Positions 8,563 through 64,000 of a DNA stretch of 64,000 nucleotides are shown in pieces. Numbering within the stretch: position 1 is the stretch's first letter; each line of letters opens with the position of its first letter. The notes under the pieces were generated by a model. It did not search any database. It was not told the DNA's origin and saw only the letters and a list, made by a program, of their open reading frames with translations. This DNA comes from an uncultured bacterium (GTDB taxonomy: Bacteria; Patescibacteriota; Minisyncoccia; Moranbacterales; UBA2206). A program made the translations under genes and the position numbers. Location: the NCBI GenBank assembly GCA_903831805.1, contig CAIKZD010000009.1, positions 8,786 to 72,785 of the forward strand. Reading direction: 5' to 3'.

Positions 8563-9573
8563 ATGTTCAAACAGAAAAAAACGTACGTCATCCTGATTCT
8601 TCTCATAGCCCTTGTCGGGGGTGGTTATTATTTCAAGTCTAAAAAACCGGTAATTGTTTATACTGCGCAAAAAGTGGAGCAAGGAAATTTAGTGCGGACA
8701 GTGGCGGTGACGGGGGAAATCATTGCACCGGTGGAAGCGGACCTGTCTTTCAAATTGAGCGGCCAAGTTGAATCGCTGTTGGTGAATTTGGGCGATCGTG
8801 TCGAAGTGGGCCAAAAAATCGCGACGATTGATAAGGGGACACTGCTCGCGCAACTGGCGCAAGCGTTACAGGAAGTGAACGCGCAAAAACAGGCATTGGT
8901 CAATATGGAAAGGCGCGCTGATGTGTATAATCATTTTCAAAAAGAAGCGCAAATGGCGGAAATTGCCAAAGCCGAGGAGGCGGTCCGAGCTGTCCAAACT
9001 AACATTACTGAAACCACTTTGTATTCGCCCATTGCCGGCATGGTAATCAAGAAAAATGTGGAAGTGGGCGAGACGACCGTGGCCAACGCTGTGACATCCA
9101 ATACGGCAGTGGTGACCATTGCGTCGGATGGTGATTTGGAAACTGAGGTGAATGTGCCCGAATCGGATATCGTAAACGTAAAAATTGGTCAAAAGGCTAA
9201 AGTGTCGCTGGACGCGCTGTCGTCGGATGAAAAATTAGACGCGGCAGTTTTTGAAATCGAGCCGGCTTCCACGGTCATTCAGGATGTGGTGTATTATAAA
9301 GTGAAGCTTAAATTTGTGGCGCCGGATGCGCGCTTGAAAATCGGCATGAGCAGTAATGTGAACATTAATACGGCCGAGAAGGACGGCGTAGTGATGGTGC
9401 CGATGCGGGCGGTGAAGAATGAGAACGGCCAAGATTATGTGGAAATTCTCAATGCGGATGGCAAGACCACGAAAAGAGAAAATATTCAAACCGGGTTGAA
9501 AGGTGACGACGGCCTGATTGAAATAACTGCCGGCTTAAGCGGTGGCGAAAATGTGGTGGTCCTAGCGAGTTAA
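8563..9573 (+). CDS. HlyD/MacA-family periplasmic adaptor subunit
   Basis: N-terminal transmembrane helix, coiled-coil, beta-barrel region. Followed by MacB-type ATPase and permeases. Confidence 0.7.
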   Translation: MFKQKKTYVILILLIALVGGGYYFKSKKPVIVYTAQKVEQGNLVRTVAVTGEIIAPVEADLSFKLSGQVESLLVNLGDRVEVGQKIATIDKGTLLAQLAQALQEVNAQKQALVNMERRADVYNHFQKEAQMAEIAKAEEAVRAVQTNITETTLYSPIAGMVIKKNVEVGETTVANAVTSNTAVVTIASDGDLETEVNVPESDIVNVKIGQKAKVSLDALSSDEKLDAAVFEIEPASTVIQDVVYYKVKLKFVAPDARLKIGMSSNVNINTAEKDGVVMVPMRAVKNENGQDYVEILNADGKTTKRENIQTGLKGDDGLIEITAGLSGGENVVVLAS

Positions 9574-28055: not shown

Positions 28056-28128
28056 GCCACCTTAGCTCAGTTGGCAGAGCGACGCACTCGTAACGCGTAG
28101 GTCGTCGGTTCGATTCCGACAGGTGGCT
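28056..28128 (+). tRNA. tRNA-Thr (anticodon CGT)
   Basis: Cloverleaf by eye: acceptor gccacct/aggtggc, D arm gctc-agttggc-gagc, anticodon loop cuCGUaa, T arm gtcgg-ttcgatt-ccgac. CCA not encoded. Confidence 0.7.
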
Positions 28129-28161
28129 CATTTTTAAAAAATAAAAATTAACTTAAGCTCT

Positions 28162-28374
28162 ATGAAAACGATTGTTTTGCATGATTGTCACATTAACTTC
28201 GAAGACGACGTAAAAGACGTCGAGACATATCTCGGGAATCATTTGAACCTGAATGAATTCCAGACGATTTTCAACTACGCACATCTGCACCAGCAAGCCT
28301 ATTTTCAAGATAGGAATGGTCACCACTATCTCGCGGACTACAAAAACGGGGAATATTTTATCGAAAAAATTTAA
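28162..28374 (+). CDS. small hypothetical protein
   Basis: 70-aa ORF directly downstream of the tRNA. Confidence 0.4.
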   Translation: MKTIVLHDCHINFEDDVKDVETYLGNHLNLNEFQTIFNYAHLHQQAYFQDRNGHHYLADYKNGEYFIEKI

Positions 28375-28385
28375 AAAACAAAAAT

Positions 28386-28820
28386 ATGCACTACGTTACC
28401 ACTTTTAAAATTTTCAAGCATAATTTCTGGACCAATGAATGGTCGCGGTTTCTGTATGAAGGAAAATATTATCGCTTCATGGCCAGGGATATTTCAGCGG
28501 TTGAGATTTTGCCAGCTAAATACCAGCGAGTTATTTTTACGATTCCAAGAGTTTGGCTTAAGGAATATGAGAAAGGTGTGTTTATGGCTTGGAAGGAATT
28601 TCCCAAAGCCCTGCAAGCTAAGATGGAAAAATATAATTTAGTGGTGGATGATAAAGAAAAAAAGAAAATATTTACTGCGTTGCAGAAAGAACTCAAAGCC
28701 TATTTTGTGAAAAAAATCACCATTACCAATCGTCAGGCCAAGGTTTTATTGAATCTGCAAACGATGGATATCTCAGCTAGGGAAGCGCATAAAATCCATA
28801 AGAAAATCGGTCTGGAATAA
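28386..28820 (+). CDS. hypothetical protein (paralog A of 31607..32041)
   Basis: About 85% amino-acid identity to the second copy. Confidence 0.6.
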   Translation: MHYVTTFKIFKHNFWTNEWSRFLYEGKYYRFMARDISAVEILPAKYQRVIFTIPRVWLKEYEKGVFMAWKEFPKALQAKMEKYNLVVDDKEKKKIFTALQKELKAYFVKKITITNRQAKVLLNLQTMDISAREAHKIHKKIGLE

Positions 28821-28846
28821 ACTAATTCGTTAAACACACAATCATT

Positions 28847-29014
28847 ATGAAAACATACATCTGTGAAATATGCGGAGATGTGGGAATGGAATTTTTTATA
28901 TCATTTTGTTGTAGTATATTTAGTGGCGCAGTGCTTGACGGATTTTACGAATGTGCTACAATAAATTCAGCTAAAACCACCCGTCCTGACCCGCAAGGGC
29001 ACGGCGGTTTTTAG
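28847..29014 (+). CDS. small ORF (55 aa) starting MKTYICEICGD like rubrerythrin, ending TTRPDPQGHGGF
   Basis: First 38 nt are near-identical to the rubrerythrin start. 3' half overlaps the conserved promoter-terminator tail. Confidence 0.3.
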   Translation: MKTYICEICGDVGMEFFISFCCSIFSGAVLDGFYECATINSAKTTRPDPQGHGGF

Positions 29015-29023
29015 ATTTTTAGT

Positions 29024-29068
29024 ATGGAAAAATTCGATAAAGAACAAAATGTGGCTTTTAAAAAATAA
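29024..29068 (+). pseudogene. remnant of NYN-gene 5' end (MEKFDKEQNVAFKK)
   Basis: Matches the start of the 29270 gene (MEKIEKKQKRVAIY). Part of a tandemly duplicated unit of about 240 bp. Confidence 0.5.
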
Positions 29069-29087
29069 TTAATCAATAACAATCATT

Positions 29088-29252
29088 ATGAAAACATACA
29101 TCTGTGAAATTTGCGGGGATGCGGAAGTGAAATTTTTTATATCATTTCGTGGTAGTATGTTCAGTAGCGCAATTGACGAATTTTCTAGATGTGCTACAAT
29201 AAATTCAGCTAAAACCACCCGTCCTGACCCGCAAGGGCACGGCGGGTTTTAG
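29088..29252 (+). CDS. small ORF (54 aa), second copy of MKTYICEICGD...TTRPDPQGHGGF
   Basis: Frame is kept despite a 3-nt indel relative to copy 1. The last 52 nt are identical to copy 1. Confidence 0.3.
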   Translation: MKTYICEICGDAEVKFFISFRGSMFSSAIDEFSRCATINSAKTTRPDPQGHGGF

Positions 29253-29269
29253 ATTTCAAGTGTTTGAAT

Positions 29270-29845
29270 ATGGAAAAAATCGAGAAAAAACAAAAAAGAG
29301 TCGCGATATATATTGATGGAAGCAATTTTTACTATAAATTGAGGGACTTGGAAGTCCCAAATACAACCTATTTCAATTACGGCGGACTTTCAGAATGGTT
29401 GGCAAGGGATCGTGTTATTATATCGAAGAGATACTATATAGGAGTTGTAAGGGCAAAGGAAAACGATGAAAAAGGACAGATGTTAAGAAAAAATCAACAA
29501 CGGTTGTTTAATCATCTCGGTTCGTCTGTACAGGGATTTATTGTGAAACAAGGATATCTTATGAAAAATGATGGCGTGTATCACGAAAAGGGTGTGGACG
29601 TTAAAATAGCAGTTGATTTATTGGTTGGTGCTTATGAAAATATGTATGATACTGCGATTCTTATTTCTTCTGATACTGACTTGATTCCGGCTATTCAAAA
29701 AATTAAACATTTGGGCAAGGGGGTTGAGTATATAGGTTTTTCACATAAGCCAAGTTTGGCATTGCAAAAGTACGCTTCACTGACTAGGTTGATGATGAAA
29801 GAAGAGTTGGAAGATTTTGTTTCAAAAACGATTTATAAAAAGTAG
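29270..29845 (+). CDS. NYN-domain (LabA-like, PIN-like) predicted ribonuclease
   Basis: AIYIDGSNFYY...KGVDVKIAVDLL...ILISSDTDLIPAIQ. Confidence 0.7.
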   Translation: MEKIEKKQKRVAIYIDGSNFYYKLRDLEVPNTTYFNYGGLSEWLARDRVIISKRYYIGVVRAKENDEKGQMLRKNQQRLFNHLGSSVQGFIVKQGYLMKNDGVYHEKGVDVKIAVDLLVGAYENMYDTAILISSDTDLIPAIQKIKHLGKGVEYIGFSHKPSLALQKYASLTRLMMKEELEDFVSKTIYKK

Positions 29846-31606: not shown

Positions 31607-32041
31607 ATGCACTACATTACCACTTTCAAAATTTTCAAGCATAATTTCTGGACCAATGAATGGTCAAGATTTCTTTATGAAGGAAAATACTATCGCTTCA
31701 CGGTCAAGGATATTTCAGCGGTTGAGATTTCGCCAGCTAAATATAAACGAGTTATTTTCACGATCCCAAGAGTTTGGCTCAAGGAATATGAAAAAGGTGT
31801 TTTTCTGGCGTGGAAAGAATTTCCCAAGACTCTTCAAGTCAAGATGAAAAAATATGATCTGGTGGTGGATGATAAAGAAAAAAAGAAAATGTTTTCCATC
31901 CTGCAAAAAGAACTTAAAGCCTATTTTGTTAAAAAAAACACCATCACCAACAGCCAAGCTAGGGCTTTATTGAAACTGCAGACGATGGATATCTCAGCTA
32001 AAGAAGCGCATAAAATCCATAAGAAAATCGGTCTGGAATAA
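31607..32041 (+). CDS. hypothetical protein (paralog B of 28386..28820)
   Basis: Start at MHYITTFK (the track ORF starts upstream). Confidence 0.6.
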   Translation: MHYITTFKIFKHNFWTNEWSRFLYEGKYYRFTVKDISAVEISPAKYKRVIFTIPRVWLKEYEKGVFLAWKEFPKTLQVKMKKYDLVVDDKEKKKMFSILQKELKAYFVKKNTITNSQARALLKLQTMDISAKEAHKIHKKIGLE

Positions 32042-32067
32042 ACTAATTTGTTAAACATATAACCATT

Positions 32068-32586
32068 ATGAAAACATATATCTGTGAAATTTGTGGGGAT
32101 GCCTATTTGGGCGAAGAGCGGCCGAGCGAGTGTCCGTTTTGCGGGTCGAGGCAGGCTTTTATCAAAGACGGTAAGGTCGCTAGTCCGATCACGCTTGCGC
32201 CGGAAGAATTGTCGGAAATTTCCAAGAAAAATTTGGAAAAAACTTTGGAACTGGAAATCCACGCCAACGCGGTCTATTTGTGCATGGCGGAAAAAACTAA
32301 GACGTATGAAATCAAAGCGATGTATAAGCGCTTGGCCAAGGTGGAATTGGAACACGCTAATATCGCGTGCAAATTGATGCAGAGTTATTTGCCGCAAGTG
32401 GGTGAAGGCTTTTGCGCTGAGGAAGATGCGTCCAATTTTGCTGAAACTATCAAACTGGAGGAGAATGCCACGGCTCTATATGTCCAATTTGCCAGAGAAG
32501 CGACAGAAAAGAACGTGAAAATTTTCTTCACCGCGCTTTCGCAAGTGGAAGCGGATCATATTAAGTTGATTAAGAATTATTTATAA
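32068..32586 (+). CDS. rubrerythrin-family protein with N-terminal rubredoxin-like CxxC...CxxC
   Basis: CEICGD...CPFCGS followed by a ferritin-like E...ExxH diiron domain. Confidence 0.75.
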   Translation: MKTYICEICGDAYLGEERPSECPFCGSRQAFIKDGKVASPITLAPEELSEISKKNLEKTLELEIHANAVYLCMAEKTKTYEIKAMYKRLAKVELEHANIACKLMQSYLPQVGEGFCAEEDASNFAETIKLEENATALYVQFAREATEKNVKIFFTALSQVEADHIKLIKNYL

Positions 32587-35553: not shown

Positions 35554-35625
35554 TGGAGCGTAGCCAAGTGGTAAGGCAACGGGTTCTGATCCCGTCATGC
35601 GTAGGTCCGAATCCTACCGCTCCAA
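35554..35625 (+). tRNA. tRNA-Gln (anticodon CTG)
   Basis: U1:A72 acceptor (tggagcg/cgctcca), D arm gcc-aagtggtaa-ggc, anticodon stem acggg/cccgt with loop uuCUGau, T arm gtagg-tccgaat-cctac. Confidence 0.7.
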
Positions 35626-35633
35626 CAACGACC

Positions 35634-44506: not shown

Positions 44507-44579
44507 GCGCCTATAGCTCAGTTGGTAGAGCAGTTGCCTTTTAAGCAAACGGTCCCTGGTTCGAGTCCAGGTGGGCGCA
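44507..44579 (+). tRNA. tRNA-Lys (anticodon TTT)
   Basis: Cloverleaf: acceptor gcgccta/tgggcgc, D arm gctc-agttggta-gagc, anticodon loop cuUUUaa, T arm cctgg-ttcgagt-ccagg. Confidence 0.75.
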
Positions 44580-44663
44580 CAAATAAAATTTTGAATTTTT
44601 AAAACAGTCTGGAGGCTGTTTTTTGTTTCAATTTGGCTTTTGTTTTACAATCAATTTAACTAG

Positions 44664-63070: not shown

Positions 63071-63456
63071 GGGACATACGAGTTACATTTAATCTTTAAT
63101 TCCAAAAAAGGCAATTAAATAAACTCTCGAAAATCTTTTAAAACACTGAATGAAACAAAGATACATCTTTGTGTGTAATTAGTATTGCGCGCGAAGATGT
63201 GTTTTTTTGCTTGCCCCGTGCGAGTTTACGGGGTTCGTTCAAAGAGTATAAAAAGCAAGACCTTTAACAATTGCATAGTTTCTCTAAATCTCCACCTTTT
63301 GATTTAGAGAGACGAAATAATCACAATTTTTTGCGATTAGTCCTCGTCTGGTCTCGCTTCGGCGAGATTGGACAAACAAATAGAGTCTATTTCAAAATTA
63401 AGAAAATTTATTTTCTTTTCAACTAATATTTGGTGGAGTTAAATCCACTGAATCAT

Positions 63457-64000
<544 letters not shown>

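Follow-up and report, generated by a model that had tools for sequence, protein, structure and literature searches.

What is the short promoter-and-hairpin module that occurs twice, in nearly identical form, just ahead of a ribonuclease gene of an uncultured Moranbacterales bacterium (Patescibacteriota)? The DNA analyzed here, 64,000 nucleotides (nt) from positions 8,786 to 72,785 of contig CAIKZD010000009.1 (assembly GCA_903831805.1, forward strand; hereafter the window), carries both copies within positions 28930-29252, where they overlap the tails of two small open reading frames (ORFs) upstream of a gene for a NYN-domain nuclease. A first-pass annotation of the sequence had read each copy as a promoter followed by a terminator-like unit specifying a small RNA (sRNA) of about 50 nt, or else a site. 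We confirmed that promoter and hairpin modules are present at both sites. Comparison with related loci makes us highly confident that they are copies of a conserved RNA element tied to NYN genes, most likely the ancestral 5' leader of one NYN ribonuclease subfamily in Patescibacteria. As to what such a leader does, we think it probable that it acts in cis as a terminator-type element limiting and tuning NYN expression, with a 45-nt hairpin RNA as the terminated product.

Both modules are parts of a tandem duplication, which is laid out as follows (window coordinates).

28820-29295, + strand: whole tandem duplication, with unit 1 at 28820-29049 and unit 2 at 29063-29295 (repeat search and unit alignment).
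28935-28962, + strand: promoter copy 1, with the -35 box TTGACG at 28935-28940, a 16-nt spacer, TG at 28954-28955 and the -10 box TACAAT at 28957-28962.
28970-29014, + strand: leader hairpin RNA copy 1, predicted 5' end at about 28970 (covariance model match of 57.4 bits, E = 3.8e-10); CUAAAAC at 28971-28977, CCCGUC at 28980-28985 with GGCGGU at 29003-29008, tip CCC-GCAA-GGG at 28990-28999, U-run at 29008-29012.
29024-29068, + strand: truncated 5' remnant of the NYN gene (MEKFDKEQNVAFKK and stop) behind copy 1 (repeat families D3, D5 and D7; unit alignment).
29173-29200, + strand: promoter copy 2, TTGACG-16-TGcTACAAT.
29208-29252, + strand: leader hairpin RNA copy 2 (covariance model match of 61.6 bits, E = 4.5e-11; covariation); CUAAAAC at 29209-29215, CCCGUC at 29218-29223 with GGCGGG at 29241-29246, tip CCC-GCAA-GGG at 29228-29237, UUUU at 29247-29250, AG at 29251-29252.
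29270-29845, + strand: gene for a NYN-domain (LabA-like, PIN-like nuclease) protein of 191 amino acids (Pfam PF01936, E = 3e-23).

Each unit consists, in order, of a short intergenic stretch with an ATG, an open frame of about 120 nt, the promoter, eight bases, the hairpin sequence (CTAAAACCACCCGTCCTGACCCGCAAGGGCACGGCGG(G/T)TTTT) and, after about 15 nt more, the ten codons with which the downstream gene begins. In a pairwise alignment the units were 82% identical over 238 columns (42 differences), and the differences spared a run of 57 nt (28951-29007, identical to 29189-29245), which spans the extended -10 box, the predicted start site, the hairpin and the U-run; with 42 differences placed at random, a clean run of this length has P of about 1e-4. 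A complete NYN gene continues from unit 2 only. Unit 1 stops in a 14-codon remnant, a leftover of the tandem duplication. Copy 1 also carries a change of GGCGGG to GGCGGT, by which the outermost G-C pair of the basal stem is lost and the U-run becomes longer. The promoters of the first-pass annotation (TTGACG-16-TACAAT) were borne out at both positions, each matching the consensus at 10 of 12 bases. For the conserved segment that it had quoted (51 nt as typed), the window holds two mismatch-free occurrences and no more, against 0 expected from 100 shuffles.

The NYN protein scored 83.4 bits against PF01936, for which the gathering threshold is 24.2, and the acidic active-site motifs IYIDGSNF, VDVKIAVD and SSDTDL are legible in its translation. 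In PADLOC it matched the candidate defence model HEC-09 (E = 3.9e-22) and, more weakly, a generic NYN model (9.5e-12). The window locus was found in at least 17 metagenome contigs.

The association of module and gene was approached by two routes. Starting from the gene, we collected NYN orthologues from 18 GTDB species (46-89% identity), which together with the window and L007, the locus of a closer relative with one module copy, gave 20 loci from Moran-, Magasanik- and Gribaldobacteria, the Parcubacteria group and unclassified Patescibacteria. Promoter and hairpin stood 10-40 nt before the NYN start in all 18 GTDB loci and in the window and L007, so that the module was present in 20/20 and no gene of the window type (0 cases) lacked it. 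The GTDB loci share a common layout: TTGACA, a spacer of about 17 nt, the -10 box, 7-8 nt, CUAAAAC-CR-CCCRYY-CUG, a variable tip, RGYGGG(G)UUUU and the NYN start. Starting from the motif, a search of metagenomes with the pattern CTAAAMMCNCCCRYYCYR-N10-22-RGYGGGKTTT gave 111 loci in 100 distinct contexts; the G+C-rich contig L035 was left out as a chance terminator. A complete NYN gene followed in 74 of these contexts, a NYN gene running off the contig end in 9 and a truncated one in 7, while 8 had something other than NYN and 2 were too short. NYN sequence thus lay 10-60 nt downstream of the module in about 90 of the 100. The same pattern had no match in viral contigs, nor did the exact hairpin 24-mer in GTDB genomes, that string holding a base that is variable in the relatives.

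A covariance model built from 20 sequences retrieved only the two copies from the 64-kb window (61.6 and 57.4 bits; next best 13.8), and one match per locus from about 770 kb of relative contigs, except for two in L134. The module is therefore neither a generic terminator nor a dispersed repeat.

At its margins, the association extends to other genes. The module stands ahead of NYN proteins of other subfamilies in three cases, proteins that BLASTP barely or no longer aligns to that of the window. It is not general to all NYN genes of the candidate phyla radiation (CPR): it was absent from the five members that we sampled of a second, very large NYN subfamily, one lineage of which (L034/L108) does have it. 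In several independent lineages (the L033 group, L060, L121, L122 and L125) it stands beside a NYN gene cut to 14-45 codons. In L068/L104 and the ten loci of the L049 group (L049, L057, L081, L083, L090, L092, L095, L100, L112 and L126), promoter and module are intact and the next gene is not NYN but a Translin-family gene (117 nt later) or a 23S_rRNA_IVP four-helix-bundle gene, each of these two kinds in one organism. L134 has its second module some 20 nt ahead of a gene for a PemK/MazF-like toxin (PF02452, E = 8.8e-12) that lacks a protein antitoxin gene. We rejected the module as a general partner of MazF-like toxins, as four other PemK-like homologues are without it; on the CPR contigs L137, L138, L140 and L141, PemK/MazF-like toxin genes stand alone, with no adjacent called antitoxin and no module. 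An unrelated hairpin of similar style, with an A-tract, a G+C stem and a U-tract (AAAAGUUGGGACGAGG...CCUCGUCCUAACUUUUU), precedes a different NYN paralogue in L143 (2380-2506) and may be the terminator of the preceding CYTH gene.

The position of the promoter relative to the hairpin proved nearly fixed. Both window promoters have an extended -10 TG, and no other site in the 3 kb scanned scored as well as a promoter; with hexamers near TTGACA and TATAAT and a spacer in the 16-18 nt range, they can be regarded as sigma-70-type. In 84 of 98 distinct contexts, at least 9 of the 12 bases agreed with the sigma-70 consensus (at least 11 of 12 in 53; TTGACA itself in 70). Of these 84 contexts, 81 have 7-8 nt between the end of the -10 box and the C of CUAAAAC, and 67 have the extended -10 TG. 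Such a distance puts the predicted 5' end at the foot of the hairpin, in the window at about 28970 and about 29208, and the fixed spacing points to a transcript. In a comparison of L008 with L009, homology begins a few bases before the -35 box, and this point marks the left boundary of the conserved unit.

Two groups of loci showed peculiarities in this region. L044, L048, L052, L075 and L132 have about 45 nt of extra leader with a mini-ORF of 5-11 codons, and this mini-ORF terminates on the UAA of CUAAAAC, where the hairpin has its foot. If a ribosome stopped there, it would cover the 5' arm, which could make read-through translation-dependent; the overlap could also be due to chance (one frame in three). 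The Magasanikbacteria-type loci L018-L022, L025, L034 and L037 have ACAATTTATCCACTTGACA in common upstream, and their spacer contains TGGGTGGT, an inverted repeat of ACCACCCA in the leader. As a result, the -10 box and the start site are flanked by the arms of a DNA palindrome, which could be an operator.

For analysis of the structure, 78 distinct modules were aligned by their conserved 5' and 3' strands, and the variable tip was set by single-sequence folding. This strand-anchored alignment replaced an earlier one of 20 sequences (MAFFT and RNAalifold), in which the tip was misaligned and only 8 pairs were recovered. The 100% pairing of the tip helix is partly by construction, and the basal helix, aligned by sequence only, is the fair test. 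The supported fold comprises an outer helix of CUAAAAC and GUUUUAG, a G+C-rich basal stem of CCCGUC and GGCGGG, the pairs UG/CA and the tip CCC-GCAA-GGG, with a conserved C(A/G) bulge and a conserved C-C mismatch. Standard pairs occupied 98.5% of 1289 pair cells, as compared with 42-63% when the partners were slid by 1-3 columns. Changes on both sides were seen in 126 pair cells, and 0/500 column shuffles reached the observed values. At the basal pair of columns 14-53, 44 sequences have G-C, 33 have A-U and 1 has G-U, and there are 0 mismatches, even though the search pattern admitted A-C; columns 16-51 hold C-G (43), U-G (27) or U-A (8), and the closing pair of the internal loop changes from G-C (72) to A-U (4). 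The tip stem (2-6 bp) is made of unrelated sequences, and its loops are mostly GNRA, also UUCG or U-rich. The stem proposed in the first-pass annotation (acccgc/gcgggt) is incompatible with this fold and lacks comparative support.

The fold is an RNA fold. All 71 wobble cells become A-C mismatches if read on the opposite strand; since the U-G wobbles are workable on the + strand only, the folded molecule is the sense transcript. Single-sequence folding gives no such strand separation (-20.2 versus -20.0 kcal/mol for the window). The predicted energies are -15.3 kcal/mol for copy 1 and -20.2 kcal/mol for copy 2 (z = -3.2; 0/200 shuffles as stable). With a G+C-rich stem-loop followed by a U-run, and folds of -15 to -29 kcal/mol, the module has the anatomy of an intrinsic terminator. 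The first three positions of the U-run (columns 58-60) are U in at least 76/78 rows each, the exceptions being L011 (UAC then UUUU) and L024 (UGUUU); a simple terminator scanner missed the hairpin because of its internal loop. Fourteen columns are invariant over the 78 sequences, among them the A-tract with its flanking C and U, the bulged C and one side of the C-C mismatch. Such conservation goes beyond what structure explains and points to a specific protein partner. There is no conserved single-stranded seed for base-pairing in the module.

The two small ORFs that overlap the modules could be called as genes, and for them a third sequence of the window is needed.

28847-29014, + strand: small ORF 1, 55 amino acids, a chimeric pseudo-ORF (protein search, frame and codon-position comparison, homology to the rubrerythrin-like gene).
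29088-29252, + strand: small ORF 2, 54 amino acids, a chimeric pseudo-ORF (same kinds of evidence).
32068-32586, + strand: rubrerythrin-like gene (PF02915, 1.4e-10), whose product starts MKTYICEICGD.

The sequence ahead of both modules is the intergenic region upstream of the rubrerythrin-like gene plus its first 11 codons; homology ends after codon 11, and the remainder of each small ORF reads through the NYN upstream region, the promoter and the hairpin. Each small ORF is thus a chimera, in which a gene-start fragment copied from the rubrerythrin-like gene is joined to the NYN upstream region. Among 5.8 billion proteins, their peptides matched only the two from the window and one from a relative. 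Across other lineages, ORFs that run over the module use all three frames, and some modules have no ORF over them. A 1-nt indel in L008 shifts the frame and turns the tail TTRPDPQGHGGF into KTPALTRKGTAGFSL, and the nucleotides of the module are kept. Over codons 1-30 of the small ORFs, differences are spread evenly over the codon positions (e.g., 7, 3, 6 and 10, 9, 11), with a ratio of nonsynonymous to synonymous divergence (dN/dS) of 0.5-1.35; real neighboring genes show an excess at third positions (porA 107, 65, 222; NYN 18, 7, 88). We conclude that the overlapping ORFs are non-coding and reject a small-protein gene, given only three peptides, a frame that is not conserved and no synonymous excess. 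The earlier proposal that selection acts here on nucleotides rather than on an ORF C terminus was right. Indeed, between the window and L007, synonymous sites are saturated in porA and porB (dS of 1.5-3.6; 52-58% of third positions differ), yet the 68 nt that run from the -10 box through the U-run contain only about 3 differences.

How might such a leader work? We propose that the sigma-70-type promoter would start a transcript at, or one base before, CUAAAAC, and that the first 45 nt would fold into one long hairpin in which CUAAAAC pairs with the 3' GUUUUAG. Most transcripts would end at the U-run as a hairpin RNA of about 45 nt, and in those that read through, the hairpin would precede the NYN coding sequence. 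The NYN start lies too near the U-run for a separate promoter, so NYN would be expressed only by read-through or from promoters farther upstream. That the bulge and the mismatch are invariant suggests recognition of the hairpin by a protein, and such recognition may be what determines NYN expression; the simplest assumption would be that this protein is the NYN ribonuclease itself (autoregulation). The second copy in the window genome arose by the tandem duplication of about 240 nt. Most predicted transcripts (84/98) begin at the base of the hairpin, with no upstream sequence for an alternative fold, and in most lineages the module is thus not a classical riboswitch or leader-peptide attenuator. 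As for the sRNA of about 50 nt in the first-pass annotation, its anatomy of promoter, hairpin and U-run stands; a free-standing sRNA gene is not established, the module being in all likelihood the 5' leader of NYN.

Several points weigh against a cis-acting terminator-type leader. Its start site, termination, read-through and hairpin-binding partner are steps that we infer from sequence. A leader without room for an antiterminator fold requires that regulation come from a separate factor. In 14 of the 98 contexts an equally good promoter lies about 45 nt farther upstream, so the hairpin is not always at the extreme 5' end, and in about 15 contexts an intact module adjoins a truncated NYN gene or other genes. 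Finally, the modules of copies 1 and 2 differ at 1 of 68 nt while their flanks have diverged by 18%. Were selection confined to the gene-adjacent copy, copy 1 should have accumulated about 6 differences (Poisson P(<=1) of about 0.02), and its near-identity is difficult to reconcile with a module that serves nothing but the translation of an intact NYN directly downstream. Copy 1 is thus either itself constrained or held by gene conversion, which is possible between the two window copies. The same points bear on an alternative that we regard as unlikely but worth stating, in which the terminated 45-nt hairpin is itself functional, as an abundant protein-binding RNA that neutralizes or partners the NYN ribonuclease in a layout like that of type III toxin-antitoxin systems. 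It would account for copy 1, kept with no intact NYN behind it, and for promoters so near consensus that they exceed the apparent need of a low-abundance enzyme; NYN always comes with the module, yet the module outlives truncated NYN genes, as orphan antitoxins do. The match of the NYN protein to HEC-09 and the second module of L134 before a PemK/MazF-like toxin gene also fit. Gene conversion, however, could explain the identity of copy 1, and truncations that spare the 5' end of a gene spare its leader by default. L134 is unique, the other four PemK-like homologues and the five sampled members of the second NYN subfamily being without a module; the hairpin is single, with no tandem-repeat array and no conserved single-stranded stretch for base-pairing, and NYN is not a ToxN, CptN or TenpN toxin. 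In its fullest form, the alternative would have the abundant hairpin RNA bind and restrain a potentially toxic NYN ribonuclease as a single-hairpin RNA-antidote pair, widespread in CPR, carried on cassettes that insert into host genes and occasionally recruited ahead of other genes (the MazF-like toxin of L134, other NYN subfamilies, the Translin family); this we consider decidedly unlikely.

That the hairpin is merely a 5'-terminal stabilizer, protecting NYN mRNA from 5'-end-dependent decay with no specific partner, seems to us improbable. Protective 5' stem-loops such as those of the ompA, ermC and aprE leaders need the hairpin at the 5' end, and here it starts 0-1 nt from the predicted 5' end in 84 of 98 contexts. 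A stabilizer needs structure and not sequence, however, whereas the module has 14 invariant columns including the bulge and the C-C mismatch, a U-run in every case, and, in the remaining 14 contexts, a distance of about 45 nt from the predicted start to the hairpin. A site acting as DNA is very improbable, be it an operator palindrome or a hairpin that serves recombination or forms the end of a mobile cassette. The neighborhoods of the NYN cassette do differ by lineage, the cassettes of the window and L134 are flanked by long direct repeats of the interrupted host gene, and the homology of L008 and L009 starts just before the -35 box; but U-G wobbles on one strand only and strict promoter spacing imply a transcript, no recombinase is found among the neighbors, and the ends depart from the attC core consensus. 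A tRNA fragment or attachment site was likewise rejected, the module being unlike the 3' end of the adjacent tRNA-Thr gene. We give almost no credence to the module having no function, with its identity due to very recent duplication or gene conversion, or to selection on the C terminus of the small ORFs. Tandem copies could convert, and both ORFs are open with the same 20 terminal residues; the conservation across candidate phyla with compensatory changes, frames that differ by lineage, differences even over codon positions (dN/dS of 0.5-1.35) and only three related peptides all speak against it. A recent duplication or conversion, which the first-pass annotation had named as what could undo its reading, therefore fails as an account of the conservation, since the module is kept across several candidate phyla.

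How does the terminator-type leader compare with known systems? In Rfam 15, searched with the whole window at gathering thresholds, only tRNAs and 16S were found, and the module matched no family. At permissive thresholds, the best match of copy 1 was EGFOA RNA (RF02955; 18.2 bits against a gathering score of 37.7, E = 0.83). The two have CCGUCCU, a small GNRA-type hairpin and GGC in common, and the matched bases are unpaired in the EGFOA model; we judged the match a chance one, being below the gathering score and absent from three other variants. In the full-text literature, as an incomplete collection, we found no RNA element upstream of NYN genes and no regulatory RNAs of Patescibacteria. 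As a terminator-type, promoter-proximal leader ahead of a ribonuclease gene, the module is of a familiar kind, within which it is best seen as a new RNA family. The E. coli rnc, rne and pnp leaders are autoregulatory structures recognized by their own ribonuclease. Like them, the module is a structured element of the 5' untranslated region (UTR) directly ahead of a ribonuclease gene, conserved with the gene and plausibly recognized by the enzyme; unlike them, it goes with a NYN/PIN-like enzyme rather than RNase III, RNase E or PNPase, has a U-run and shows no sequence or structural homology to them.

In the phage late promoter PR' with its terminator tR', the Shiga-toxin transcript is terminated early, giving the sRNA StxS (PMC7547250). 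There too a promoter is followed almost immediately by an intrinsic terminator, with a short RNA as the default and downstream genes reached by read-through. The phage, however, uses the Q antiterminator and makes a longer RNA, whereas the RNA of the module would be about 45 nt, chromosomal in CPR and with no known antiterminator. In type III toxin-antitoxin systems (ToxIN, CptIN and TenpIN), antitoxin RNAs are tandem direct repeats cut by the toxin (PMC5086642, PMC3401426). The module resembles them in anatomy only: a promoter, a non-coding RNA, a terminator and an endoribonuclease gene, with an RNA that can outlive the protein gene. It differs in having one hairpin per gene in nearly all loci (the two window copies, 238 nt apart, are lineage-specific and belong to a larger duplication of gene fragments) and a NYN domain (PF01936) rather than ToxN/AbiQ, CptN or TenpN, PADLOC returning only HEC-09 and NYN. 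Judged by sequence, the layout is thus similar, but the repeat array and the toxin family do not fit. A stem-loop in its own mRNA is also a target of Regnase-1/MCPIP1, so that here, as in the module by sequence linkage, a NYN-domain RNase is linked to a stem-loop of its own transcript. This eukaryotic NYN ribonuclease targets mRNA stem-loops (PMC4958271). Its stem-loop lies in the 3' UTR of a eukaryotic gene, unlike ours, and we claim no RNA homology. An integron attC site was rejected: CTAAAAC and GTTTTAG fit only the AAC and GTT of RYYYAAC ... GTTRRRY, the module lies 5' of the gene behind its own promoter, and there is no integrase among the neighbors.

The surroundings of the module in the window bear traces of insertion. 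An ORF of 144 amino acids is duplicated at 28386-28820 and 31607-32041 (86% amino acid identity), and each copy is followed by the same intergenic sequence and the first 11 rubrerythrin-like codons (28820-28880 and 32041-32100). Between these long direct repeats lie the two modules, the NYN gene, a small ORF and an ORF of 525 amino acids. This looks like an insertion into codon 11 of the rubrerythrin-like gene that brought a replacement 5' end. No recombinase was recognizable near the window cassette, and ORF70, ORF144 and ORF525 had no significant match in Pfam, NCBIfam or PADLOC. In L007, the chimeric ORF, the module and NYN come directly after a tRNA-Thr(CGU) gene (2195-2268); in the window, two extra ORFs (28162-28374 and 28386-28820) separate tRNA-Thr (28056-28129) from the chimeric ORF. 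The 3' side of tRNA-Thr looks like an insertion hot spot. In L134 (reverse strand, 1-2141), there are three copies of the 5' part of an ATP-binding cassette (ABC) transporter ATPase gene, reaching as far as the Walker A motif; a module and a gene come after copy 1 (NYN) and again after copy 2 (the PemK/MazF-like toxin), and copy 3 is the intact gene. Similar ABC ATPase fragments adjoin the module in L033, L043, L049, L119 and L128, which suggests repeated cassette insertion at one site. Elsewhere in the window are tRNA-Gln (35554-35626), tRNA-Lys (44507-44580) and the 5' part of a 16S rRNA gene (63456-64000), which runs off the window end.

To our knowledge, almost no regulatory RNAs of CPR/Patescibacteria have been characterized experimentally. 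The module described here is compact, at about 45 nt, and comes in more than 75 distinct variants that show clear covariation and near-invariant unpaired features; it is tied one-to-one to one NYN ribonuclease subfamily, and its alignment is ready as a seed for a new RNA family. It also carries a warning for annotation, since the called "proteins" of 54-55 amino acids are chimeric leftovers over a promoter and a structured RNA. For the NYN enzyme, the conserved hairpin is a first candidate for its substrate, regulator or partner; if it is true that the RNA acts in trans on the nuclease, the logic of RNA antitoxins would extend to PIN-like nucleases.

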